The position numbers were made by a program, and so were the translations under genes. The notes beneath the pieces were generated by a model that saw only the letters and a list, made by a program, of their open reading frames with translations, did no database searches and was not told the DNA's origin. A DNA stretch of 20,000 nt from an uncultured virus (IMG/VR IMGVR_UViG_3300020595_000024) (lineage: Duplodnaviria; Heunggongvirae; Uroviricota; Caudoviricetes; Crassvirales): IMG/VR virus record IMGVR_UViG_3300020595_000024; one strand, given 5' to 3'. Shown here one piece after another: positions 7,656-20,000 of this stretch (within the stretch, counting starts at the first letter, position 1; each line of letters starts with the position of its first letter).

Positions 7656-10600
7656 TTAATACTCGGTATATGACACTATTAAGTCATGTGCAACCATGCT
7701 TAAATTATTACTATTGTCTATTGACAAGGTTAGCAAAACCCAAGGAGATTTAATCCTATTCATACTATTTTGCTCCCTTGGCAACACTACTGACCAGGTT
7801 CTATTTTTTCTTTTTAAATTCTTTCCTAGTACAAGATCTCTAATGCCACTCTTTTGGTACTCATTAGACAACTCTACTTTATCAAATGAAGAGTCTCTAA
7901 CATCATTGCCAAGAGAATCTTTAGCCTCCATCTTATACATAACATTGTTAAATGTAAACTCTCCATCTCCTTGTACAGGAATTACATTAAAAGATATAGA
8001 AGAGTCGTATGTTACTCCATAAAAGCTTCCGTTGTTTCCTTTAAAGTGACCCCAAAGTTGTTTAGATGTTGGATCAGAAGTAAGCATGTGATTACCTTTG
8101 TTTATGTACCAAGCAGGAGTGTAATCGTAAAAACTAGTAAACTTCTGAAGATTTTCATTCAAACACAAAGTGTAATCATTTCTTTCTCCTACTTCTGCTA
8201 ATCCTGTGCCACCACTGTTAAGTTGTTTCATTGTAAAGTAAACTTCATTGTTTACTGGGTTGTAAGAGAAAGCAGGTCCTTGCCCTATCACAGCATTATC
8301 TTTTACAAGAGAGTCGTAAGTTAAGTTGTTTGCCAGAAAGCTATGAAAACCTTTCTGATCAGACACGTCAATAACTCCTTGGCCATTTGATTGCATCAAA
8401 GACAATGTGTTTAGATCTAAATAATAGAAAGCATTAGGAGTTGCAATTACGCCTCTCTTGTTAAGAGATCCTGACTCAGTACTTAAATATCTATAGTCGT
8501 GAAGTATTCCACCAGTACCAAGCTCAATACTTTCTCCGTCTCCAGGAGCCACTTGAACTCTAGGATTAATGTTTATAAGAGCCAATGCTGTATCCTGAAA
8601 TGCAATTATGTTGTCTTTAAAGTTTAACGTAGCATTAATAGGTCCGTACTTTCCGTCCAAATCCATCGTCTCATTTTCTAAGAAGTCAGTCCAAGAATCA
8701 ATTTTTTCTCCAGGAGTTTTTAGCTTTGTGCTAATTATTCTTCCGTCAAATTCTTTAACTTTCTTAAAGCTAAACCCTGGATCAGTAGTCTGAACTAGGT
8801 TAGCTTCTTGAGAATAAACTGGATTGTATTCCTGGTACTCATTATACCTTGGGTGGTATCTGTTGTCCCAAGGGTATATTGATATATCATTTCTATTCTT
8901 AAGATCAATTGATGTTTCAACCATAAAGCTAACAAACTCAGTACACTGAGAAAGACTTCTATCGCTAACTTCAGTATCAGTTTTAGATAGCTTTGTAAAA
9001 ATAAACTCTTGAACAAAAGTATCTCCAGCAGAATCTATTTGAAGTTCAGTTGTATCAACGCTTGCATAACCACCAACTTCTATGTATGTAGAGGTAGTCT
9101 TTGATTCATAGGAGTTTCCTCCGTATATGTTTCCAGCGTATAGAAATTGATCTGGCTTAAAAAATTCTGCAGTAAGTATACCAAATCCGTCTCCTCCTGA
9201 TGGAGCAGCAGCTGCGTATATTTCTTCTATTGATTTTCTCCAGCTAATTGGCACACTAGCATCATCTGTTCCTTCAGCAAAAGTTATACACTTTGCTCCC
9301 CAAGAGTTTACGCCTACTATTTGCTGAGGACTATCTGCCGCATCCGCATTCTCCCAGTTGTCCATCAAAAGAGTCTCTAAACTATTAGAGTATCTTAAGC
9401 CAGATATTCCATTGTAAGGAGTAAAGCCAGCACCTCTTTCAGTTACCTCTGGAGTTCCAAAAGTATTGTAAACTTCTACACCCGTAGATGGGTGAAATGT
9501 TTTATGTCTTTTATATAGTTGAGAAAATCCTGTTGCATCACTATTTTCTGTTGGACCCCATATACCTTGATCACCCATGTGTTCAGGCTCTCCTTCTATA
9601 GGCTCTAATATTACAGGGTTTACAACATTTGTTACAGTTATTATACCAGTAGTAGGATCTACACTTAGTGAAGTTGGATCTACTGCCCATCCATTTCTAA
9701 ACTTAGCTTCTGATGTATTCTGCTTTGTGACTGGGTTCCATTCCCCGTTCCAAGCACCAGACTCTTCTAGTTCTTGTAATCCAAGAACCCTAAGCTTATA
9801 AGAAGAATCTATTTCTATATTTTCAAATAATAGCTCAGGAGTATACATCTGCATAAGCTTGTTGAATTGCCAAGTTTGTGCAAGAAAATCATCACCAGTA
9901 CCAGCGGTGTAACCTTCTGTAAAGTAATTATAACCCCATGCAGGAGCCTGTCCAGGATAATTTTTTTGTGAGATGTCTCTACCGTTATGGTATGCAGCTA
10001 TTAAGTTTTTTCTTTGAGTATTAGTAAAAGGATCTGCCTCACCAAACTGTCTTGTCAAAGAAGGTAGCTTAGAAGCAGTTTCTTCATAACCAATCGTGTA
10101 CATAGAAGTTTTGTCCGTGGATCTACTGTTTACTAACATTCCATTAAGCATTCCTTGAGTAAGGATAGTCCTGTCTGACAAGGTTCTTTCTGCTCTAACT
10201 ATTTTGTATCCAACAGGCTTTTGACCTTTTTCAAATGCAGTAGTGGCTAGCCAAGTTGCAAAAGCAGGTTTTGTTTCAAACTTTACAGTATTAAACTTTC
10301 CTTCTAAATTACCGACAGGTGCTTTTATATCACACAACCATTTAGGAGGAGTTGTTTGTCCAACATTATTATAGAACACTATACCAAACCTATATATCTC
10401 TCTATCCTTTAAGTATCTGTTTAATACAGATTCTTCTTCGTTAAATTCTTTTTGATTAATACTAAGTCTAAAGTATTTACCTTCTGCTCCATAGCTAGTA
10501 ACAGCGTCAGTTCCATCAGTACTTACTTCACTATATGTCAGGCCATTTGAGTCAGTTACAACAGTGTCAAGTCTATTACCTACAGTAGTGCTTAAAATCC

Positions 10601-12173
10601 TTAAATAAACTTTATTGCCAAATGGGTTAGAAGTTAGTACTGATGAAATGTGTTCACTAACATTAGTGTTTATATAATCTCTCATCTTTACTGCAACTTG
10701 CTCTTTAGTATCTCCACCAGAAACAGGAACATTATATGTAGTTCCATCTATTGATATAGATACAAGAGAATTAGCAGTAGCAGATCCAGAAAGCTCTATT
10801 CTAGTATACTCTCCAGTACCTCCAGTTTCATTGCCTGGTGCAACAAAAGGATATGTAATGTAGCTTCTGTTTATTGCGTCATGCTTTTCTGGCAGCTCGT
10901 AAGTTGTTGTATCTATTTGTGTTTCAGACCCACTTAAGTTTCCGTCAATAAAGCTAATGTCTTCCCAAACCTTAACTTCCCCAGTAGCACTATGGCCATA
11001 TATTCTTGTATCAAGATCAACATCAAATGATCTTTCTTTAAAGTTAAAAGCAAATAGTCTATTGTCTTTTGATTCTATGTGCTTAGGAGTTATTGGGTTG
11101 GAACCCAAGAAAATGAACTCAGAAAGATTTAATGGCTCAATTATAGTACCTGCATCAAAGTAACTGAATACATCGTAATTTCCTATTTCTCTATCTGCAA
11201 TTAATCCTATTTCAGGAACAGTATTTTTTGCTGTATACTTTATAGCATAAAGTCTTATGTGAGTAAAGTCTTTGTCAATGTTTTCTACATTAACAGTAAC
11301 TGTTCTAGATACATTTTCATTGACAGCTCCTCCACCTCTAAGAGGTCCATTGTCTAAAGCCTGTGATTCAGACAAAGGAGATATAGATGTTTGTGATCCA
11401 TTTAAAATATACAAGTTATATGCATACTGAATCTTACCGGCAGTGTGTTCACCACCAGGGGCAGTATCCTTTATTATAGGAGCAGACAAATTAAATTCAC
11501 TAACAATGTTTATTGAAGAGGTTTTTATGTCTACCAAATTCAATAGGTCACCATTGTCTATGCTTTGTCTAATGTTCATAAACCTAAGTTGGTTTATTCC
11601 ATCTGTAAAATATATTTTTTCTATAATAGAATTTTCGTAATTGTAAACAACTTGAACAAGATTCTGTTTGCTAAGATTAAGATCATTAACATAAAGAAGG
11701 TCAAGATCTATTCTGTCTCTGTCTACATTAGAAACCTCCCAAAAACAATCCCATCCATTGTCATCACTAGTAACTATGATAGCACCATTTCTAGTATCGC
11801 AAACCCCTATGATAACTTGGTCGCCCGAAGTATCACCATTAGAATAATTATCTTCTAATTCGCAAAACTCAAATGTCCCGGGACTTCCTAAGACTGGTAT
11901 CTTTGAATAAGGTAAGTGTTTCATTGATCCACTAACGGCATTGTAATCTTTGTTAAGATAAGATAACCTAGTGTTTGTGTGGTCAATAGTTACAGCAGGT
12001 ATGCTAAACTCTAACTCATTACCTTTTTCATTAGTCAGTGCAAATGAACTTCTCTGATCACTAGCAACTACTCTTATATTCTTTGCTGATACGTATGTTT
12101 CTGGATTGCTTTTAGACTTAGCAAAGTCTTGAGACATACCTCCCGTATAGCCTAGCTTGTGTTGTCTTATCAT
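7656..12173 (-). CDS. Tail stabilisation / muzzle protein (P22 gp10-like, crAss-like muzzle)
   Basis: 1505-aa beta-rich ORF. N-terminal GGMSQDFAKSK...AKNIR...LTNEKGN, KIYFTDGINQLRFMNI, IQYAYNLY..NGSQT, EIYRFGIVFYN, IDSWTDF...LDGKYGPI...FQD, and LCLNENLQKFTSFYDY match the family as I recall it. Directly follows the tubular protein gene. Confidence 0.85.
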   Translation of the reverse strand: MIRQHKLGYTGGMSQDFAKSKSNPETYVSAKNIRVVASDQRSSFALTNEKGNELEFSIPAVTIDHTNTRLSYLNKDYNAVSGSMKHLPYSKIPVLGSPGTFEFCELEDNYSNGDTSGDQVIIGVCDTRNGAIIVTSDDNGWDCFWEVSNVDRDRIDLDLLYVNDLNLSKQNLVQVVYNYENSIIEKIYFTDGINQLRFMNIRQSIDNGDLLNLVDIKTSSINIVSEFNLSAPIIKDTAPGGEHTAGKIQYAYNLYILNGSQTSISPLSESQALDNGPLRGGGAVNENVSRTVTVNVENIDKDFTHIRLYAIKYTAKNTVPEIGLIADREIGNYDVFSYFDAGTIIEPLNLSEFIFLGSNPITPKHIESKDNRLFAFNFKERSFDVDLDTRIYGHSATGEVKVWEDISFIDGNLSGSETQIDTTTYELPEKHDAINRSYITYPFVAPGNETGGTGEYTRIELSGSATANSLVSISIDGTTYNVPVSGGDTKEQVAVKMRDYINTNVSEHISSVLTSNPFGNKVYLRILSTTVGNRLDTVVTDSNGLTYSEVSTDGTDAVTSYGAEGKYFRLSINQKEFNEEESVLNRYLKDREIYRFGIVFYNNVGQTTPPKWLCDIKAPVGNLEGKFNTVKFETKPAFATWLATTAFEKGQKPVGYKIVRAERTLSDRTILTQGMLNGMLVNSRSTDKTSMYTIGYEETASKLPSLTRQFGEADPFTNTQRKNLIAAYHNGRDISQKNYPGQAPAWGYNYFTEGYTAGTGDDFLAQTWQFNKLMQMYTPELLFENIEIDSSYKLRVLGLQELEESGAWNGEWNPVTKQNTSEAKFRNGWAVDPTSLSVDPTTGIITVTNVVNPVILEPIEGEPEHMGDQGIWGPTENSDATGFSQLYKRHKTFHPSTGVEVYNTFGTPEVTERGAGFTPYNGISGLRYSNSLETLLMDNWENADAADSPQQIVGVNSWGAKCITFAEGTDDASVPISWRKSIEEIYAAAAPSGGDGFGILTAEFFKPDQFLYAGNIYGGNSYESKTTSTYIEVGGYASVDTTELQIDSAGDTFVQEFIFTKLSKTDTEVSDRSLSQCTEFVSFMVETSIDLKNRNDISIYPWDNRYHPRYNEYQEYNPVYSQEANLVQTTDPGFSFKKVKEFDGRIISTKLKTPGEKIDSWTDFLENETMDLDGKYGPINATLNFKDNIIAFQDTALALININPRVQVAPGDGESIELGTGGILHDYRYLSTESGSLNKRGVIATPNAFYYLDLNTLSLMQSNGQGVIDVSDQKGFHSFLANNLTYDSLVKDNAVIGQGPAFSYNPVNNEVYFTMKQLNSGGTGLAEVGERNDYTLCLNENLQKFTSFYDYTPAWYINKGNHMLTSDPTSKQLWGHFKGNNGSFYGVTYDSSISFNVIPVQGDGEFTFNNVMYKMEAKDSLGNDVRDSSFDKVELSNEYQKSGIRDLVLGKNLKRKNRTWSVVLPREQNSMNRIKSPWVLLTLSIDNSNNLSMVAHDLIVSYTEY

Positions 12174-12174
12174 G

Positions 12175-12885
12175 TTATTGTATTTTTAAGAATTCTTGAC
12201 TACCTAGAAATTTAAACCTGTTCTGGAACTCAGTCCTAGAAGGAAGTATCTTAGTCATAGAATTAACAAGTGCTTCCATCTCTGCTTCGTCAGGCATCTG
12301 TAAGTTAGATTGTGCCTGGCCAACATAGTAAGAATAATCTATTTCTGCTTTTTGTAATTTTGCTCCAGAGATCTTATCCAGGTCATTAAGGATATCAAAC
12401 CACTGGTATTTTATGTATGCTCGTAGTGCTCTTATAAGTTCCTGATTGTCAGGTATAAGAGGATAACACTCTTCATCTGTAGCAATTGCTTTGTATATAA
12501 TTAGTAGCTTACCTTCTTCAAAGTTAGGAAAGATTCTAGAATTATTAAGTGTGTAAGATAATCCGCCAGCTTGTCCAGCAGCAGAAGAATAAGAGTCATA
12601 GTGAGCAGCCAAAGTATCCTGGTTGTCACTCATTGGAGTTAGAGTTCCGCCAGCTTCAACTTTCATCACAGCATTTACGTTAATGATATCTATAGGAAGA
12701 GATCCTTTAAAGTTCTTTACCTGTATAACTTCTTCTTTAGATACAAACATTGCTGGAGTACCAACAATACGCATACACTCTACAGCGTTAGATACAATAA
12801 ATTCCCAAGACAAATCTTTTAGTAAAGGGTTCTGCATTAGTGTATCAGCAATAAGCTTTATAGATACTAGTTTTCCATTTTTCAT
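12175..12885 (-). CDS. Tail tubular / ring protein (P22 gp4-like, crAss-like ring protein 1)
   Basis: 236 aa. VSIKLIADTLMQNPLLKDL...GSLPID...YKAIATDEECYPLIPDN...RALRAYIK...YSYYVGQAQ pattern. Located between the IHF-like and muzzle genes. Confidence 0.85.
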   Translation of the reverse strand: MKNGKLVSIKLIADTLMQNPLLKDLSWEFIVSNAVECMRIVGTPAMFVSKEEVIQVKNFKGSLPIDIINVNAVMKVEAGGTLTPMSDNQDTLAAHYDSYSSAAGQAGGLSYTLNNSRIFPNFEEGKLLIIYKAIATDEECYPLIPDNQELIRALRAYIKYQWFDILNDLDKISGAKLQKAEIDYSYYVGQAQSNLQMPDEAEMEALVNSMTKILPSRTEFQNRFKFLGSQEFLKIQ

Positions 12886-12893
12886 TTCTTATC

Positions 12894-13400
12894 TTATTTT
12901 ATAAAAGCATCAATTCTTCCTTTGAAGATACTTCTGCTTAGGTTTCTTTTTAGTTCTCTGTTAAATCTAATTTTGTATACAGACTTATTTTTGTACAGTG
13001 CCTTACTCTTCAGGTAAGATACTTTAAATGTGTATCCATCAGTGTGCTCGTTAGTGAACTTTATACTTATCTTTTTTTCTTTTGCTTCAGGATTAGACTT
13101 CCAGAACTCTCTTGTAGCTTTCCAGTTTACAGGTAGATTGTTTACTATGTTCCCATTTTCATCAACCTTAACCTCAGTCTTAATCTTTCTTAGTTCTACC
13201 CTTCCAATACGGCACGGTAGGATAAAGCCAGCTCCTTTACTAGATATCTTTTCTCTAAGGTGAGAATTAAAACTATTCAGTATTAATCCATACTCCCCTC
13301 TGGTCATTTCTATCTCAGGGTTACTCTTCTTAAAGTCCCTGTAAAAGTCATTAGCTCCATAGTCGCTCTTAACAAAATGATTCCTCTTATCCTCAATCAT
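12894..13400 (-). CDS. IHF/HU-like DNA-binding protein conserved in crAss-like structural modules
   Basis: 168 aa, basic. DFYRDFKK...YGLILNSFN...FILPCRIGRVELRK...LPVNWKAT...FNRELKRNLS pattern. Canonical position upstream of the tubular gene. Confidence 0.8.
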   Translation of the reverse strand: MIEDKRNHFVKSDYGANDFYRDFKKSNPEIEMTRGEYGLILNSFNSHLREKISSKGAGFILPCRIGRVELRKIKTEVKVDENGNIVNNLPVNWKATREFWKSNPEAKEKKISIKFTNEHTDGYTFKVSYLKSKALYKNKSVYKIRFNRELKRNLSRSIFKGRIDAFIK

Positions 13401-13403
13401 AGT

Positions 13404-14093
13404 TTATGCTTTTTCTTGTCTCTTATCCTCTGAGTCATTAATGTTGTCTTCAGGTAACTGAAGTCTGGTAGCTAAACCTTTCATAACAACTCCAAGAACT
13501 ATGTCCTGCAGTGCAAGCTCCAAAGGATACTCTTCATCCCATGGCTCACATTCCTGTGACGCTGATGTGCATTTTAATTCAGCAGCTAGCTCAGGGCTTT
13601 CGTAAACTCCATCTACTCTTACTGCTTCCATAAACATGTGCTTCTTGTTTGCCGATACTAAGTAAAGATATCTGTCCACATCAACTGCAGCATATATCAT
13701 GTTAGCTGTAAATGTGTTGTGACCAATCATAGGTAACCTTTCTACAGGAACAATGTTTATCTGAGTTGACTGTCTGTCGTATCTCTTTACTCTAAGCAAC
13801 GCTCCGTCACCTCCTTTTATAGATATTCCTTTTGGCAACCTTTCTGTGCTTCTTAGTATTTTTCCTAAACACCTAGCTCCTTGAACAGAGTCTGCTGGAA
13901 CAAGCCCAATACACACTTCTTGTCTAAGCTCTATAGGAAGGTTCCAATCTTTGTTGCCATACATCTGTTTTAGAGTGGTAGCTCTAGCAGCATCGATAAG
14001 ACTAGATATCAACTCCTGAGACACATCAGTGTCATCAGACTGAATCTTAAGCCCCTCCATTACTGTAAAAATTAGTTCTCTTTTAGTTGCCAT
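13404..14093 (-). CDS. Tail ring protein (crAss-like ring protein 2-like)
   Basis: 229 aa. MATKRELIFTVMEGLKIQSDDTD...QEVCIGL...ILRSTERLP...DRYLYL...GVYESP...CEPWDEEYPLE...PEDNINDSED pattern plus synteny. Confidence 0.75.
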   Translation of the reverse strand: MATKRELIFTVMEGLKIQSDDTDVSQELISSLIDAARATTLKQMYGNKDWNLPIELRQEVCIGLVPADSVQGARCLGKILRSTERLPKGISIKGGDGALLRVKRYDRQSTQINIVPVERLPMIGHNTFTANMIYAAVDVDRYLYLVSANKKHMFMEAVRVDGVYESPELAAELKCTSASQECEPWDEEYPLELALQDIVLGVVMKGLATRLQLPEDNINDSEDKRQEKA

Positions 14094-14125
14094 TTGTATT
14101 CTTTTTTAATTTAGTTATTTAAACC

Positions 14126-14164
14126 TCAGAAAGGCTAACCTATAAATAGGATAGCCTTCGCTGA
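14126..14164. terminator. Long interrupted stem-loop downstream of the phosphoesterase gene (possible terminator or processing site)
   Basis: TCAG-a-AAGGCTA-a-CCTAT-aa-ATAGG-a-TAGCCTT-cg-CTGA. Only a weak U-tract on either side. Confidence 0.45.
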
Positions 14165-14194
14165 ATTTTCTTAATTTGTTTTATAAATTTCTCA

Positions 14195-15163
14195 CTAGTT
14201 TTTGTATTTTTCTAAATCCATTGCTACTAGTATAGGCTGGTTACCTCCATCGAGTACTACTCCACATCCTATTGCATTTTTCTTTCCTCCAGCTGCATAA
14301 GCAAAAGCATATTGGCTGTCATCAATTCCACATCCTACTGCCATTGCAAATAAACTTCTGGTCTTGCCAAACATAAAGTCAATGTAGAAGTCTGTGTGAT
14401 AATGGCCAGTAACTGTAGACACCATGTCTCTTCTTGTTGCAGTTCTTGCTTTAGAGCTCTTATGTCCGTGAACATATCTAATTCCGTTAATGTAAGTATC
14501 TGTAACCCATTTCCAATTTGGTGTGCCTAATACGTCATTAAAATCTTTAATCCATATCTTTGGCACACCCGAATCAAAAGCTTTACGCATAATTATTGCA
14601 TCGTGATTACCTATACAAATCTCCGCTTGGGGAAATGCTGCGTACCAATCCTTAACTCTCTCAATACATAACTCAAGTTCTGCTCCTCCTCCTAGTCCGT
14701 CAGGATCTGTAGCATGAAATGAACTGTAGTGCGAGTCAATTATGTCTCCAATGAATACTACTCTATTACATTTGTGTTTCTTATAAGTATCTATACAAAA
14801 TTCTAAATACCCTGGTCTCTCAAATGGCAAGTGTAAATCACCGATTACTAGTACATTATATTTTTTTTCTTTTCTTACTTTTACTGTTGGCCTTTTCTTA
14901 GGTGTTTCATATCCTAGTCTTTCAGCTAACTCAGCAAACTTTGCTTCAACATCATTGCTCTCTTCAAATTGAATTGGAACAATAGGTACAATCTCTATAC
15001 CCTTCAGTTCTTGTCTAGCTGCCTTCTTAGCCGCTTTTATTATCATTAGCTGATTACCACTCACATTTTTTATTTTGAGCTTCTTAGCTATTCTTTCTAG
15101 TCCAGATTTTAAATGACTTGGGTTACTTAAAATCAATTCTCTTACTCTCTCCTCTAATCTCAT
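14195..15163 (-). CDS. Calcineurin-like metallophosphoesterase with a basic N-terminal extension
   Basis: All five motifs are present: IGDLH, FIGDIID, IGNHD, YVHGH, TGHYH. About 100 aa of Lys/Arg-rich, probably helical N-terminus. Confidence 0.9.
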   Translation of the reverse strand: MRLEERVRELILSNPSHLKSGLERIAKKLKIKNVSGNQLMIIKAAKKAARQELKGIEIVPIVPIQFEESNDVEAKFAELAERLGYETPKKRPTVKVRKEKKYNVLVIGDLHLPFERPGYLEFCIDTYKKHKCNRVVFIGDIIDSHYSSFHATDPDGLGGGAELELCIERVKDWYAAFPQAEICIGNHDAIIMRKAFDSGVPKIWIKDFNDVLGTPNWKWVTDTYINGIRYVHGHKSSKARTATRRDMVSTVTGHYHTDFYIDFMFGKTRSLFAMAVGCGIDDSQYAFAYAAGGKKNAIGCGVVLDGGNQPILVAMDLEKYKN

Positions 15164-15195
15164 AATTTGTTTTTATTAGTTAATCACAACTGAAA

Positions 15196-15228
15196 CAAAT
15201 ATACGAAACTTTTAGTTAACAATCCAAA
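15196..15228 (-). promoter_or_regulatory. Bacteroidota sigma-A type promoter for the phosphoesterase gene
   Basis: Minus strand TTTG (15228-15225), 21-nt spacer, TATATTTG (15203-15196). Shares AATTTGGAT with the 3137-3170 promoter. Confidence 0.75.
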
Positions 15229-15262
15229 TTAACTATAATGCATTTAGCATTAGTTATTAACA

Positions 15263-15613
15263 TTAATCTTTAAGAAGAGTTACAGTTTCTGAATAATCTG
15301 CAAGTCTACTGGCTGTGTATCCAACCCTTGTTACTTCCAAAAGCCCGTCTGTAAAGGTTCCTAAAGTGCCTGATGTCGAAAGAGTGAAGATAATGCTCAT
15401 AGAGTTTGAGAAAGTAAAGTTTCCGTTAACAAGAGTAGTCTCAACACCATCTTCAGTAATGACTTTGTTAGATCCAGGAACAGTTAAGGTCAAGATCTCA
15501 CCATTAGGTGCTCCTATTTCATACTCATAAACAACACTATGGCCCGTGTCTTTTGCAGATGTTCTAGTAACATAGAACTCAGCTGCTTCAAAAAATACTT
15601 CAAATTTTCCCAT
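15263..15613 (-). CDS. Small beta-rich virion accessory protein (putative fibre tip)
   Basis: 116 aa, Thr/Val/Gly-rich. Start overlaps the upstream stop (TAATG at 15613), indicating translational coupling. Confidence 0.6.
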   Translation of the reverse strand: MGKFEVFFEAAEFYVTRTSAKDTGHSVVYEYEIGAPNGEILTLTVPGSNKVITEDGVETTLVNGNFTFSNSMSIIFTLSTSGTLGTFTDGLLEVTRVGYTASRLADYSETVTLLKD

Positions 15614-16356
15614 TATACTATTTCGTTAGAGTACGATCCAGCAGAGTCAGCTATCTCGAAGTTAAAAGATCCTGATCCAAAACCTGTAAAACCTGTAGGT
15701 CCAACAAAGGTTAAGAATCCGCTAGTTATGTCAGCAAAGTCTATCTCTGCATTAAGAAGTGCTGGCTTACCTTTATATTTAATAGTACCGTTAGTTGGTA
15801 AAGAGGTTAGCTTTAACTTGTCAGGAGTATTTCCTTCTGCGTCAGAATACGCAGGAGTAGTGTCTGTTGTAAACATTGCTGCTGTAAATGTAAGGGTGAG
15901 CCCATAAAACAGTGTAGCTGTATTGTCTCCTATAACTGGAGGTGTATTTGCTTCTGCAAGTACACTAGCACTAATGGTTCCTATTACCGACCCAAAAGAA
16001 TTGGATACAACATCAGAAGCAAAGTATGTAAAGTTTGATGTATGTGCAGTAGCATCAGAACTATCATCTACAAAAGTAAGTAGTCCAGAAGCTATGTCTG
16101 TAACATCTATCTCTTGTCCGACAATAATGTCTGTTCCTGTTAACTGAAAGCTTCCTGCTACATTTGTTAATGTGTCTATCTTTATCTTGCTTATAGCGTG
16201 TCCTTGTGGGTGACTATATACAGGTGCACAGTTTGTTGTGAAGTCATTTTCAGAAAAAGTAAAACTTCCTGCGTGAGGTAAAGTAATAGTTATAGATCCT
16301 ACTTGGTTAGGAGTTGCAGCTACTGGAGCTGTTGTTGTTATTGTAAATAATGCCAT
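15613..16356 (-). CDS. Two-repeat Ig/cadherin-like protein (putative fibre shaft subunit)
   Basis: 247 aa. Two copies of FT...P.YS...G....KI.I..L...G.....G.......EID..DI.SG.LTFV....F.Y/F...D. Confidence 0.7.
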   Translation of the reverse strand: MALFTITTTAPVAATPNQVGSITITLPHAGSFTFSENDFTTNCAPVYSHPQGHAISKIKIDTLTNVAGSFQLTGTDIIVGQEIDVTDIASGLLTFVDDSSDATAHTSNFTYFASDVVSNSFGSVIGTISASVLAEANTPPVIGDNTATLFYGLTLTFTAAMFTTDTTPAYSDAEGNTPDKLKLTSLPTNGTIKYKGKPALLNAEIDFADITSGFLTFVGPTGFTGFGSGSFNFEIADSAGSYSNEIV

Positions 16357-16357
16357 T

Positions 16358-16657
16358 TTAACAATTTGATTTTATGTACACGCTATTTTCATCTAGCGTT
16401 ATGAATGTTCCTTTAGGTATGTTATAGTCTTTCTTTAGACCAGTAGTGTTCTTTAGTGTAGTAAGACCTGAATCAGAATACACAGTAACTCCAAGTGTAA
16501 ATGAAGTTCCGTCATGATAAGCTACAGAGTCAACTGCTCTGTAAACTAGTGGGTCAGTACATCTACTTGCTTCTTGTGAAGAGATCTTAATCTCTGAAGC
16601 AGATGGAGGAGTAACTGTGTCATCACTCCTCTTTGCTGTAATATTTAATATAGCCAT
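16358..16657 (-). CDS. Small virion accessory protein with a two-Cys beta domain (putative fibre tip)
   Basis: 99 aa. C...AYHDG...LGVTVYSDSGLTT...C(terminal). One-nt spacers to both neighbouring genes. Confidence 0.6.
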   Translation of the reverse strand: MAILNITAKRSDDTVTPPSASEIKISSQEASRCTDPLVYRAVDSVAYHDGTSFTLGVTVYSDSGLTTLKNTTGLKKDYNIPKGTFITLDENSVYIKSNC

Positions 16658-16658
16658 A

Positions 16659-17669
16659 TTATGATACCCATATTAGTGATCCGGTGTCTCTTGCAGAAAA
16701 CAAGATAACATCAGAAGTTATTGTACTTGCTGTTGCACCAGTGTGGGTAAATAAACCTGCATCTAGTTCAGCCTTTGTTATTACCTGCCCAATCACAAGA
16801 GCCCCTGAATTGTAAAGGAATGTACCTTGGTTGCTTCCAGAAACCTCGTCAATTCTAATCGCATCTAATAAGTCTCCATCTGGATCAGCGTAAGCTGGCG
16901 ACAGCTGGCTAGTAAACATGTCTGAAGTAAGAATTGTAATTACATTGTTGTCTACATACATTGTGCTATCTCCTAGAGAGCTTATAGCTGAGTTACCTAC
17001 AGGAGCAACAGTTATAGATATAGTAGTGTTAGAGCTCCAAAGAGTATTGTCAGTATCATTGTTTGATATACTAAACACTAAACTTTCAGATATTGCAGCA
17101 TTTGTTATTTTCCAGTAGCTAAGAGATCCAAGATCTGCATTAGCTATTACTTGGCCATTAACTACATCCACATTGTTTAGTCTTAAAACTCCTGTAGATG
17201 GAACGGTAACAATAACAACGTCTCCTGCAGAGTTTCCAGATGTATCAGCAAATCCTGTAGTAAATGATGTTGAAGCAATATCAACTGCTTTAGTATACAC
17301 ATCAACAGGTTCCTCACCTGAGTTGTCTTTATCAACAGGAATCTCATCTGATTGAACTATGCCAGCACCAGTAACTGTAACTGCAAAGGCAGAAAAAACA
17401 GCTGCCGCATCTACTCCCGCAAGAGAAGGTGCAAAGTCTTGACCTGCTATCATGTTAGTGCATATATTTTTATCTGACTGTTGTAGATTACTAATCATAG
17501 CATCTATCCTGTTTAAGCAATCATAAGATGGTGAGAAACCAGCATACTTGTACAGTAGCTTTAATAAGCTAATCTCTGACAAAGATCCTTCTCCATAATA
17601 CTTTAATTGCTTGTCGTAGTTTTCTACAGAGCAAATAAATACATTTGCATTGTTTGGTTTCATTTCCAT
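16659..17669 (-). CDS. Tail hub B-like N-terminal domain fused to two Ig/cadherin-like repeats
   Basis: 336 aa. Helical N-terminus (SVENYDKQLKYYG...ISLLKLLY) resembles the small crAss protein that follows tail hub A. C-terminal repeats such as PAYADPDGDLLDAIRID...GQVITKAELDAGLFTH are homologous to those of the 247-aa protein. Confidence 0.65.
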   Translation of the reverse strand: MEMKPNNANVFICSVENYDKQLKYYGEGSLSEISLLKLLYKYAGFSPSYDCLNRIDAMISNLQQSDKNICTNMIAGQDFAPSLAGVDAAAVFSAFAVTVTGAGIVQSDEIPVDKDNSGEEPVDVYTKAVDIASTSFTTGFADTSGNSAGDVVIVTVPSTGVLRLNNVDVVNGQVIANADLGSLSYWKITNAAISESLVFSISNNDTDNTLWSSNTTISITVAPVGNSAISSLGDSTMYVDNNVITILTSDMFTSQLSPAYADPDGDLLDAIRIDEVSGSNQGTFLYNSGALVIGQVITKAELDAGLFTHTGATASTITSDVILFSARDTGSLIWVS

Positions 17670-17672
17670 ATC

Positions 17673-18248
17673 TTATAAGTCTAATATGCAATCAACTACA
17701 CCAACACTTACTATGTTACCTGCAGTAGATACAACTGGGTTAATGTTAGAGCATTCTCCACAACTAATTTCTTCAAAGATGTTTATCTTCTTAAGAAATT
17801 CTATAGAGTCTCTAAACCTACCTATTTTAATTGAGTTCTTCATTGCCTCTACGTACATGTCTAGTAGTAGTGCATTCTGAAAGTTGTCATTGCAGTTTAA
17901 GCAAGAAAGATCTACATTAGCCAAAAGAGCAGCTAATACAGCGTAGTATCTTGTTAAGCTTAATGTAGCAACTATTCCAGGAGCGTCAGTGACATTATCG
18001 CTCTCTATCTCTGCAAAGTATATTCCGTCAAAACTAGGAACTCCAGCAGCAGATGCTGATATAGTTATGTCTTCTACTATTCCCGTACCTACTATAAGAG
18101 ATGATAGGTCAATAGCTTGAGACTGAACTTTATACGTAGCATCTGTCCATAAAAGAATAGATGTTACAAGTTCTCCAGATCCTACAGTAACCTTTAGTGC
18201 TAGAGACAATCTGTCTGCAGATACTTCAAATTTATTTACTGTTATCAT
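17673..18248 (-). CDS. Tail hub A-like structural protein
   Basis: 191 aa. MITVNKFEVSADRLSL...SILLWT...GIYFAEI...CLNC...ALLL...SIKIGRFRDSIEF...CGEC. Position after the auxiliary capsid gene. Confidence 0.6.
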   Translation of the reverse strand: MITVNKFEVSADRLSLALKVTVGSGELVTSILLWTDATYKVQSQAIDLSSLIVGTGIVEDITISASAAGVPSFDGIYFAEIESDNVTDAPGIVATLSLTRYYAVLAALLANVDLSCLNCNDNFQNALLLDMYVEAMKNSIKIGRFRDSIEFLKKINIFEEISCGECSNINPVVSTAGNIVSVGVVDCILDL

Positions 18249-18268
18249 TTAATTTTTGTTATATGGTT

Positions 18269-18304
18269 AAAAAAAAAGGGATAAGAGCATAACTCTTACC
18301 CCTT
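18269..18304 (-). terminator. Rho-independent terminator after the auxiliary capsid gene
   Basis: Minus strand GGGGTAAGAG-TTATG-CTCTTATCCC followed by T9. Confidence 0.9.
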
Positions 18305-18342
18305 CTTGGTTTATTTGTTTCTTGATTATTTCAAGAAAGTAA

Positions 18343-19359
18343 TTATGAAGTTGCTAGTGCATCTACAGATCCTGCACCTAAAATAGTGTTTAGGTCAGCA
18401 ATAAGTAGGTTAGCAGTTGTGTTACTAGCTAGATCAGTGAAAGGTAAGTAGATAGTAATACCTTTGTTACTTTTCTTAGCTTCGTCACGTCCTTCTTCGA
18501 AGTATCCGATTTCAATTGCATTGTACTTTCCAGTTACGTCAGCATCGTACTTTCCTTCAAAGTTGTGTGGGTATCCAGCACCTCTTAAGTAATCGTTACG
18601 CTCACCTTTAAGGAAGAATTCCATTTCTGCAACTTGCTTACCAGTTCCTACACCTGGAGTTCCTCCGGTTTGTACGATAGTTGGTAGAGTTGAGAAGCTT
18701 GCTCCTACAGTAAAGTCTAATTGTTGACGAGTCATTTTGTTTGCATTGAAAGATGCGTCAGCCCAGTCAGCTTTCTCAGTAATAACTAGTGCAGCAGATG
18801 CTCCAGTTCCAGTCTTAGTGAAAGAGAAATACACGTTAGAAGCTTCTTGTGTTACCACAGCAGCAGCGTCAGTATAAGCAACAGTCTCGTTGGTTATTGG
18901 CTCTTCTCTTTTGAAATTACGAGATAATGATTTTACTAGACCATCTACGATGTTCTCAGCGTCATCTCCTGTTTTTGCTTTGTAAAAAGCTTTCTTTACA
19001 TACTCATTCTCAGCAGATAAAGATCCAAATTGAGAGATGATTAATTCAACTGTGTACAGAGTATTTGCGTTTGCAGTGATACCTGAGATAGTTGCTACTC
19101 CTAACACTGGAGCTTGGTATGCTACAGATCTTGCAAAAGACACCTTTGAAGGGTCTACAATGTCTGAAGTTAACAAACCACCGTTGTTACTTTTCTTTAA
19201 TAGTGAGAATTTTTTTCCTGCTCCTATTGCAGAACCATCCTGAGATAGTAATGCTAAGTCACCATTCGCTCCAGCCTTAAGGGCTCCTACGTTTGCGTGT
19301 TGAGGAAAATCTGATCCTACATAAAGTTGTCTTACTTGTTTTTGTGCAGCTAATGCCAT
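18343..19359 (-). CDS. Auxiliary capsid (decoration) protein of crAss-like phages
   Basis: 338 aa. QVRQLYV...TSDIVDP..V...QFGSLSAENEYVK...LVITEK...GTGKQVAEMEFFLKGERNDYLRGAGYPHN...YNAIEIGY. Followed by a strong terminator, as expected for a high-copy protein. Confidence 0.85.
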   Translation of the reverse strand: MALAAQKQVRQLYVGSDFPQHANVGALKAGANGDLALLSQDGSAIGAGKKFSLLKKSNNGGLLTSDIVDPSKVSFARSVAYQAPVLGVATISGITANANTLYTVELIISQFGSLSAENEYVKKAFYKAKTGDDAENIVDGLVKSLSRNFKREEPITNETVAYTDAAAVVTQEASNVYFSFTKTGTGASAALVITEKADWADASFNANKMTRQQLDFTVGASFSTLPTIVQTGGTPGVGTGKQVAEMEFFLKGERNDYLRGAGYPHNFEGKYDADVTGKYNAIEIGYFEEGRDEAKKSNKGITIYLPFTDLASNTTANLLIADLNTILGAGSVDALATS

Positions 19360-19377
19360 AATTTTAAATTGTTTTAA

Positions 19378-20000
19378 TTATACTATTTTTTTATTTACTT
19401 GTACTCTTGTCATTAAATTGTTTTCTCTTGCGGTTAAAACTGCAAGATCAACAGCTCTTATTAATATGTCTCTGTGTACCTCTGTATTTAGTTCGCAATC
19501 TTTTCTTGTATTGTAACCATCTATACTAAGATTCATTCCAGATATGTCGTCATCTTCTTCAAAATCTGCTAGAATTATTGGCTTTGGTTTCCTCACGTAT
19601 CTAACGTGATATTCTGATATTGTATCAATTGCAAATAATTCAGCTTGTTGTTTAGAGGCTCCGTATCTAGTCAGATCCATTCTCCAAGCTTTACGTAAGT
19701 TAGGCTTTTTAAATGGGTTGTCTATATCTACTTGAAACTCATCGTGAGTGATTGGCTTTACTTTTATTTTTTTGCCATTCAGACAGGAATTTGTTCCACC
19801 CAGGGTAACTGATTCGAGTACAATATACAACAAATCATCTGGTAGTCCAAAGAATTGAGAAGAACTTATCAGGTTTTGTTCACTACCTTCTTCAGTAGTG
19901 AGTATAGTTCCTGGTCCACCAAAGTTAGATAATCTGGTTGTTGTCTTGTAATCCCCAACCAATTCACTTAACTGCCTTCTTCTTCTTTCGGATCCTTCAA
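19378..20000 (-). CDS. Tail ring protein (crAss-like ring protein 3-like), 5'-truncated
   Basis: The frame stays open upstream of the track's TTG start (EGSERRRRQLSELVGDYK), so the true start is outside the window. Motifs LPDDLLYIVLES, VKPITHDEF...NPFKKP...AWRMD, YHVRYVRKPKPIIL, CELNTEVHRDILIRAV. Confidence 0.8.
   Translation of the reverse strand, partial: EGSERRRRQLSELVGDYKTTTRLSNFGGPGTILTTEEGSEQNLISSSQFFGLPDDLLYIVLESVTLGGTNSCLNGKKIKVKPITHDEFQVDIDNPFKKPNLRKAWRMDLTRYGASKQQAELFAIDTISEYHVRYVRKPKPIILADFEEDDDISGMNLSIDGYNTRKDCELNTEVHRDILIRAVDLAVLTARENNLMTRVQVNKKIV

Follow-up and report, generated by a model that had tools for sequence, protein, structure and literature searches.

The 20,000-nucleotide (nt) stretch of DNA analysed here (the window) comes from an uncultured marine virus of the order Crassvirales (IMG/VR record IMGVR_UViG_3300020595_000024). 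All long open reading frames (ORFs) of the window lie on the minus strand, and Pfam matches together with gene order identify the locus as that of a crAss-like phage. Positions 15263-17669 (-) encode four consecutive proteins, named here by their length in amino acids (aa) as p336, p99, p247 and p116 (Table 1). The genes meet at the junctions TAA-T-ATG, TAA-A-ATG and TAATG, each gene being out of frame with the preceding one. An initial annotation had read this cluster as a pilus-like fibre with a hub anchor (p336), a polymerisable shaft (p247) and two tips (p99 and p116), held together by N-terminal strands that complete truncated immunoglobulin (Ig)-like domains of the neighbouring protein. 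The junctions were re-read and found correct, and the coordinates and all peptides quoted in that annotation were located in the window. Below, a terminal domain that lacks its last strand is called a socket and the N-terminal strand of a following protein a plug.

Incomplete terminal domains and N-terminal strands

The proteins p336 and p247 are homologous (BLASTP E 1e-13) and both match phrog_22884. A repeat hidden Markov model (HMM) of 123 positions, built from domain C in 14 of the 15 rows of alignment A1, finds two repeats in each of them, at residues 137-234 (HMM positions 23-123) and 238-334 (HMM 4-100) of p336 and at residues 23-144 (HMM 2-123) and 147-240 (HMM 3-97) of p247. The internal repeats include the G strand plus a linker (HMM ~102-123); the terminal repeats end before the G strand, 2 residues (p336) and 7 residues (p247) from the stop codon. 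AlphaFold 2 (AF2) models of the monomers agree with the HMM, and the four homologous repeats of the initial annotation, complete inside the chains and without the last strand at the C-termini, are thus found by both approaches. In the p247 model (predicted local distance difference test, pLDDT, 91.5) the first domain is complete and the second is without any strand after F (233-237). The p336 model (pLDDT 72.5; Ig part 81-97) shows a disordered stretch between its helices and the complete repeat A, and its last domain closes with a long strand at 322-328 plus a two-residue bridge at 334-335. At this C-terminal end R327, D328, W334 and V335 are invariant in 19 sequences.

The Ig parts of both models fold as tandem beta-sandwiches, for which Foldseek against PDB returned generic cadherin and pilin matches (template modelling score, TM, <=0.36), that is only generic tandem Ig matches and no crassvirus chain. 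Sequence searches of PDB with p336, p247 and the upstream neighbour p191 gave nothing meaningful. The Pfam family Cadherin_3 (PF16184) reaches 18.0 bits against p247, below its cut-off of 25.5; precomputed PF16184 matches exist for four p247 homologues and a PF17803 match for one.

A search with p247 yielded 29 proteins and a search with an alignment as query yielded 45 viral loci; a single-protein query had given 8 pattern matches, none of which was confirmed. The closest cultured relative by protein is Cellulophaga phage phi14:2 (Steigviridae), whose g080 is 38.7% identical to p247. Full-length p247 homologues all start with a MALFTIT-like peptide and all stop directly after FxFEIADxGSGxxxx, and relatives of 315-318 aa are p336 homologues with the C-terminus RDEGSxxWVx. 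Across the 45 viral loci, locus L001 and the window, the last domain of 67 of the 70 complete Ig-bearing ORFs stops at HMM position 105 or earlier and at most 8 residues from the end. With identical sequences collapsed and L001 dropped (the same phage as L005), the truncated ending is found in 56 of 59 unique Ig proteins from the 45 loci and the window. Judged by these profile matches, C-terminal truncation is far beyond chance, and the pairing of truncated acceptors with N-terminal donors, whose conservation the initial annotation had left to be checked, is kept in homologous loci.

The exceptions are L026_5099 and L044_5147, two proteins of the p336 or THB type (THB, tail hub protein B) with a full G strand at the end, and L044_6468, which carries a plug and a complete Ig domain. 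Because the THB-type proteins of L026 and L044 keep their G strand, the split-domain joint is not universal. In these two loci (L026:5099-6740 and L044:5147-6893) the THB-type proteins end in ...TTTITINVI and ...ISTITILIR, and the next gene overlaps by 4 nt and begins at strand A, so that the first joint is cut at the domain border; further along the locus the cuts fall in the F-G loop. With its plug and one complete Ig domain, L044_6468 (141 aa) is a natural end cap.

The plug of p247 is conserved at M1, T5, T7, P16 and G20. In the best AF2 model of p247 alone residues 1-17 are coil, with a mean pLDDT of 60 for the first ten residues; the peptide is unstructured and does not fold back into its own chain. 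An ungapped position-specific scoring matrix (PSSM) of the G strand gave a mixed result for such N-termini, which were the second-best window in 16 of 31 cases and the best in 1, and was replaced by an HMM comparison with shuffles. By that comparison 15 of 31 N-terminal 24-mers of the p247 family match HMM positions 105-123 and outscore every one of the 620 shuffles. For the proteins that follow sockets, plain regular expressions performed poorly (27-30 of 53 pairs vs 18-36 of 391 background ORFs, many of the latter being members of the system) and were replaced by a plug PSSM, trained only on the 16 p247-type N-termini starting with MA or MG, MLYTIT-type starts being excluded. The non-Ig ORFs that directly follow a socket reach a median of 7.1 vs -11.5 for 343 other ORFs, and 32 of 42 exceed the background 95th percentile of -1.1 (Mann-Whitney p 4e-17). 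The top background scores belong to further ORFs of the same fibre clusters. Within the window p99 scores 4.3.

Fused relatives link the two halves of the pattern. Some of their internal G strands repeat, word for word, the plugs with which neighbouring genes begin: seven of 44 unique internal G-strand segments read a literal M-A-x-h-x-h-x-h (h, hydrophobic), e.g. ...FSNMATFTFNINEYVNLPP..., and a literal NMATFTINI occurs internally. L029 has the internal segment ...KYFSNMATFTFNINEYVNLPPTAVGD, and its next gene starts with MATFTININ. Since plug words stand inside fused arrays, the cut appears to lie in the F-G loop, at a Met already present in the uncut arrays, and by its sequence the plug motif is the missing G strand. 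Socket and next gene are separated by <=3 nt in 32 of 55 unique pairs and by <=20 nt in 47 of 55. In the fused forms the socket C-terminus and the plug N-terminus are adjacent residues, and for this reason the joint looks like a nicked F-G loop with its free termini side by side.

Some further plugs and plug-like peptides were seen. Plug position 2 is nearly always Ala or Gly (window 15581-15613, 16628-16657 and 16294-16356, and the loci), which would permit removal of the initiator Met. The proteins L037:3193-4233, L039:5320-6366, L043:5323-6366, L041:4882-6372 and P0023 start with a domain rich in Cys, which is followed by an internal strand resembling a plug (...NNMGLFTINNGAYVNQPP...) and by one or two Ig domains with a truncated end, and the L039 protein matches the family of tail hub protein A (THA; jackhmmer E 1.4e-11). 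Proteins of this kind might be hub proteins with both plug and socket that could interlock around the collar. In phi14:2, the pectate lyase g086 (L048:801-4628; 1275 aa), a spike-like protein detected by tandem mass spectrometry (MS/MS), lies between THA (g087) and the THB-type gene (g083) and starts with MSEFKITKIQV, a plug-like alternation; it may be another plug-bearing fibre.

The two small proteins were described by their relatives. The representative library holds 22 relatives of p99, most of them 97-126 aa long, and jackhmmer found none in the 45 loci. The start MA[IVL][FL][NTV][IVM][TIV] is present in 14 of 19 sequences read, the other five being MAS/MAT or MGKLM strand variants, and an N-proximal and a C-terminal Cys recur in most. 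A p99-type domain also forms the N-terminus of P0066 (668 aa) and P0067 (218 aa). The 16 close homologues of p116 are all 116 aa long, and p116 is homologous to the first ~110 aa of downstream proteins of 149-1114 aa in relatives (jackhmmer: proteins of 149-229 aa at iteration 1, those of 462, 492 and 1114 aa and phi14:2 g079 at iteration 2). Peptidase_S74, an intramolecular chaperone domain typical of trimeric fibres, is above the Pfam cut-off in P0066 (p99-type head), L027_3580 (p116-type head) and L032_7316. Judging from these relatives, p99 and p116 are better described as stand-alone copies of two N-terminal fibre-anchoring adaptor domains, which elsewhere head fibres of 462-1114 aa; of the earlier description as two tips, the plugs stand, and the proteins may be end caps or may carry something further. 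Residues ~57-97, the C-terminal half of p99, recur as 22 matching stretches in P0048 (2789 aa) and as 8 in P0064 (1688 aa) and, given these multiple matches, appears to be a repeat unit of giant proteins elsewhere.

The modelled p247-p116 joint and a proposed order of the parts

Full-length p247 (31-row alignment) and p116 (21 rows) were folded as a complex in three runs together with three controls. The interaction prediction score from aligned errors (ipSAE) was 0.83, 0.84 and 0.82, and the best of the three controls gave 0.00; 116 of 157 solved complexes attain the ipSAE mark, as do 2 of 215 mismatched pairs, figures that are only approximate here because own alignments were used. The runs share >=87% of contacts, and partner pLDDT is >=78. 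Confident contacts involve only residues 1-11 and 14 of p116; on the p247 side they fall on strand A of the last domain (142-153), on the loop and strand F (223-234) and on residues 243-244. The p116:p247 pairs with the lowest error (4:145, 6:147, 7:148 and 8:149 as well as 4:231 and 6:229) are in G-strand register. Residues 3-8 of p116 are predicted to run parallel to p247 144-149 (A) and antiparallel to 233-229 (F), the canonical position of a G strand. For this pair the model thus places the N-terminus of one protein in the G slot of the last domain of the other, as had been proposed. As a prediction, it supports binding of p247 and p116. Recall of a homologous complex by the predictor is unlikely, because neither p247 nor p116 has a PDB relative by sequence. 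Taken together, strand complementation is well supported in silico.

Sockets fall into two classes, THB-type sockets ending in ...IWVS (W-type) and p247-type sockets ending in ...GSGxFxx (F-type). Behind W-type sockets, 11 of 14 plugs have a hydrophobic residue at position 3 and 3 of 14 at position 8; behind F-type sockets the corresponding numbers are 7 of 31 and 25 of 31 (Fisher p 7e-4 for position 3 and 5e-4 for position 8, values that overstate independence since the sequences are related). Leaving out three adjusted rows gives 8e-3 and 2.5e-3. In the window the plugs of p99 (MAILNITAK) and p247 (MALFTITTT) belong to the W-following class and that of p116 (MGKFEVFFE) to the F-following class. 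From these classes the chain is read as p336 <- p247 <- p116, with p99 competing for the p336 socket.

The same classes bear on the polymerisable shaft of the initial annotation, in which p247 would chain head to tail into a shaft of variable length on the p336 anchor, capped by p99 or p116. p247 does have a plug at one end and a socket at the other, its socket is homologous to that of p336, and some p247-type proteins elsewhere have plugs of the F-following class, e.g. MATFTVTVN and MGTLTISIN. The window p247 plug (L3, F4, I6, T8), however, is of the class found after THB-type sockets, which makes self-plugging unlikely, and plugs after p247-type sockets are polar at position 3 in 24 of 31 cases and hydrophobic at position 8 in 25 of 31. 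Also, the order THB-type, p247-type, small plug protein recurs in L011, L013, L014, L018, L019, L020-L023 (one sequence), L025 and L036. An open p247 polymer is therefore disfavoured, and we consider it unlikely.

We favour, with a probability of about 0.68, the reading that the four genes encode parts of a tail appendage which are joined by strand-complemented split Ig domains into a defined short arm rather than an open polymer. For its assembly we infer the following. p336 would be anchored in the tail-hub collar by its helical N-terminus and would present two cadherin-like Ig domains, the last of which, cut in the F-G loop, would miss its final strand and form a socket. The following proteins would begin, at a Met-Ala or Met-Gly, with the missing strand as a plug, which would lie antiparallel to F and parallel to A and so rebuild a canonical sandwich from two chains. 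p247 (plug, linker, Ig domain and socket) would serve as an extension piece, and p99 and p116 would each bring a plug and a small adaptor domain. The most likely order would be p336 <- p247 <- p116, and p99 could fill the p336 socket in place of p247. Tight translational coupling may deliver plug and socket together, without a dedicated chaperone. As regards presence in virions, the phi14:2 record annotates g080 (p247-type), g083 (p336-type) and g081 as MS/MS-detected.

A reading without any joint between the proteins would take them as independent Ig adhesins or decorations that arose by gene fission, the shortened domain being stable alone and the N-terminal motif being its owner's first strand. 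The p116 and p99 families are compact, so their conserved N-terminus could be an edge strand of their own, and p336 retains the conserved ...IWVS tail after F, with residues 334-335 forming the short bridge in the model. Yet one and the same motif opens downstream proteins of three unrelated architectures (Ig, p116-type and p99-type), recurs as the internal G strand of the fused forms and is unstructured in the p247 monomer. In the complex model, moreover, p116 contacts p247 through this motif alone, in the G slot, and the controls stay at 0.00. Finally, neutral fission would hardly be expected to place the cut at the F-G loop instead of a domain border, as seen in 56 of 59 unique proteins. 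Independent adhesins are decidedly unlikely on this evidence.

It is very improbable that p247 complements itself, either by filling its own last domain with its plug, the domains being antiparallel, or by a swap of plugs in a closed dimer of two p247 chains. The 21 residues of plug and linker could in principle span a domain, and closed swaps are common among strand-exchanging proteins; in the best monomer model the N-terminus is nevertheless coil of low pLDDT, and p116 occupies the socket in all three runs with full-length p247. That the junctions are bridged by frameshifting into a single polyprotein with covalently joined strands is hardly credible in spite of the very short gaps and the overlapping stop and start, since the upstream frame is closed by a stop codon at every junction and the next ATG lies in a different frame (+1, +1, -1), since relatives space these genes anywhere between -13 and +46 nt apart and since the phi14:2 products are annotated separately.

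Several points weigh against a short arm of strand-complemented parts. The support is wholly in silico, and one pair (p247 + p116) of five proposed pairs was folded. The predictor may have learned a general grammar of strand complementation, and the controls exclude only non-specific docking. Because the loci come from related phages, neither the counts nor the Fisher tests deal with independent events, and duplicates were collapsed only by identical sequence; three rows of the W class used an internal start or skipped an ORF of 61-69 aa. The proposal that the next proteins have strand-like N-termini stands across the family and for p99, and it falls short for two proteins of the window itself: the p247 N-terminus is not significantly G-strand-like (score 1.5 vs a maximum of 3.6 in 620 shuffles) and MGKFEVFFE of p116 has a plug PSSM score of -2.1, just below the background 95th percentile. 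In L026 and L044 the THB-type protein retains its complete G strand, and the protein that follows is plug-less. Trimeric fibres with three plugs are not obviously matched to single sockets. In the phi14:2 record the small plug proteins g079 and g082 bear no MS/MS note. The anchoring of p336 in the hub, treated below, lacks homology support in comparisons with both the gp39 sequence and the gp39 family profile.

The tail hub neighbourhood

The gene order of the window is that of crAss001 (auxiliary capsid protein AUX, gp38 THA, gp39 THB, ring protein R2, IHF-like protein, ring protein R1 and muzzle protein MUZ; Table 1). Phage records contained no megablast match for window positions 12000-20000. 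The four fibre genes sit between p191, in the THA position, and a metallophosphatase gene. The p191 family (A4) matches crAss001 gp38 by hhalign with a moderate probability of 80.7% (E 1.3e-5, 149 columns), and p191 follows the auxiliary capsid protein, as THA does in crAss001. By profile similarity and position p191 is a homologue of crassvirus tail hub protein A. A link of p116 to THA, which appeared in jackhmmer from iteration 2 on, was rejected as profile drift (hhalign of A3 vs A4, probability 0.28%).

p336 starts 3 nt after the THA gene. A p336-type gene lies directly after THA and before ring protein 2, and this adjacency is retained in many loci. The N-terminal part of p336 is modelled with helices at 5-25, 30-45 and 49-65 (low confidence, pLDDT 50-57), and this module is kept in 27 other locus ORFs (duplicates not collapsed), 17 of which are aligned in A5. 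The initial annotation had called p336 a fusion with hub protein B, and of this the position after the THA homologue remains: a Pfam scan of p336 for gp39 (PF25711) gave no family at E up to 0.1, and hhalign of the p336 N-terminal family A5 gave a probability of 0.08% against the gp39 sequence and of 0.2% against the 18-sequence gp39 family profile A7. Probably p336 is anchored in the hub through its helical N-terminus.

Two neighbouring genes are recorded for completeness. Between the fibre genes and ring protein 2, positions 14195-15163 (-) encode a calcineurin-like metallophosphatase (phrog_221, E 1e-49; Pfam Metallophos), which is also present in phi14:2 (g075) and several loci. Between ring 2 and ring 1, positions 12894-13400 (-) encode a 168-aa protein (phrog_12177, E 9e-40); phi14:2 carries at this place a gene annotated as an IHF subunit, and the crAss001 gene there (gp42) is given as HU/IHF-like.

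Table 1. Coordinates of the fibre genes, their parts and the neighbouring structural genes in the window
Feature	Position	Strand	Basis
Ring protein 3/4	19962-19378	-	Pfam
Auxiliary capsid protein	19359-18343	-	Pfam
p191, THA homologue; hub context, outside the Ig chain	17673..18248	-	hhalign, position
p336	17669-16659	-	ORF list
p336 residues 1-70, helical module, conserved Cys70, candidate hub anchor (THB position)	17460..17669	-	AF2, conservation
p336 repeat A, residues ~126-221, complete, G strand 215-221	17007..17294	-	HMM, AF2 strands
p336 repeat B, residues ~238-336, G-less, predicted W-type socket ending RDxGSxIWVS	16662..16958	-	HMM stops at 100
p99	16657-16358	-	ORF list
p99 parts: putative plug MAILNITAK (residues 1-10 = 16628-16657) and small two-Cys adaptor domain	16358..16657	-	relatives
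p247	16356-15613	-	ORF list
p247 putative plug, residues 1-21, G-strand-like peptide and inter-domain linker (MALFTITTTAPVAATPNQVGS)	16294..16356	-	conservation, HMM
p247 repeat C, residues 22-144, complete, G strand 126-132	15925..16293	-	HMM, AF2
p247 repeat D, residues 145-247, G-less, predicted F-type socket	15616..15924	-	HMM stops at 97
p116	15613-15263	-	ORF list
p116 parts: putative plug (residues 1-11 = 15581-15613) and ~105-aa beta-rich adaptor domain	15263..15613	-	complex model, homologues
Ring protein 2	14093-13404	-	Pfam
Ring protein 1	12885-12175	-	Pfam
Muzzle protein	12173-7656	-	Pfam

Strand complementation elsewhere and its proposed counterpart in crassviruses

Chaperone-usher pili (Fim, Pap, Csu, CFA/I) are built by donor-strand complementation and exchange of Ig-like subunits without the seventh (G) strand. 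As in their pilins, the terminal Ig domains here are predicted to lack the G strand (HMM matches end at 97-100 of 123, in agreement with the AF2 monomers), and in the p247-p116 model the N-terminal strand of the next protein, with alternating hydrophobics, would run antiparallel to F. The two-domain tip adhesins CsuE and FimH are among the top Foldseek matches for both models, and FocH for p336 only, all of them weak (E 7.5e-5 to 1e-3, TM <=0.36). Unlike chaperone-usher pilins, the proteins of the locus match no Pfam fimbrial family and no PDB sequence, and no PapD-like chaperone or usher is found among the Pfam and PHROG families of the 12 ORFs of 7656-19962. Their N-termini are the plugs themselves and not signal peptides, which fits cytoplasmic assembly. 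The subunits are heterogeneous (Ig pieces, adaptor domains and long fibres) with a probably fixed assembly order, and it is precisely at an F-G loop that the repeat array is cut, fused relatives of which exist. The proteins of the locus are outside the chaperone-usher class, though the mechanism works likewise. Also known outside that class are strand-exchange polymers such as TasA fibres and the type V pili of Bacteroidota, the phylum to which crassvirus hosts belong; both are homopolymers, and assembly of type V pili requires proteolytic removal of a strand. Here, by contrast, the joints would be between different proteins, and the comparison is one of mechanism.

Among phages, a solved parallel comes from the siphophage Tuc2009, in whose baseplate a C-terminal hairpin of BppU completes the sheet of the BppA sandwich to give a titin-like composite domain (PMC4742702, available text). 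There as here, strands of one virion protein would complete an Ig-like sandwich of another, in our case as judged from the model and from fusion and fission of the genes. The Tuc2009 donor is a C-terminal beta-hairpin of 25 residues and not a single N-terminal strand, the setting is a siphophage baseplate and not a crassvirus tail collar, and the available text of PMC4742702 describes no portable plug motif common to many fibre genes; the comparison is one of mechanism. In crAss001, a member of the same virus order with the same neighbourhood (AUX, THA, THB position, R2, IHF-like, R1, muzzle), the tail hub (THA2-THB) docks the N-terminal residues 1-26 of the trimeric fibre gp22, so that fibres attach by their extreme N-termini (PMC10172136, available text). 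According to the same text, docking is into the hub itself and THB has 114 aa and no Ig domains, unlike p336 with its predicted Ig sockets. In the contractile sheaths of phages and injection systems, each subunit extends the sheets of its neighbours with its N- and C-terminal strands, which, as the available text of PMC13266070 presents it, is sheet augmentation in a helical homopolymer and differs from one fibre protein completing a cut Ig domain of another.

Within the literature searched we found no strand-complemented fibre described for crassviruses, nor an N-terminal plug shared by many fibre genes. The initial annotation likewise knew of no such description for crAss-like tails; the solved Tuc2009 baseplate (PMC4742702, available text) is a phage precedent. 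A broader idea, which we regard as tentative and somewhat less than an even chance, is that the portable N-terminal tag M-A/G-x-h-x-h-x-h may be a general docking plug by which any fibre, spike or adaptor can be clipped onto hub Ig sockets in marine crassviruses. In that case the two socket and plug classes (...IWVS and ...GSGxFxx) would fix the order, translational coupling would replace a chaperone, and a widespread and barely described principle of phage fibre assembly and module exchange might be at hand.

In the structural atlas of crAss001 fibres and their attachment are poorly resolved (PMC10172136, available text). Our results offer a testable rule for the way in which fibre parts may be attached to the hub across a large marine branch of crassviruses: a cut Ig domain would serve as socket, and the next protein would supply the plug with its first ten residues. 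Such a rule would explain the tiny ORFs of 46-130 aa between fibre genes, predicts which gene products touch, aids the annotation of uncultured crassviruses and suggests that fibre modules are exchanged between phages by retaining a ten-residue tag. Judged by the modelled joint, it would add a cytoplasmic, chaperone-free case to the known strand-complementation assemblies and is of real interest to phage structural biology.

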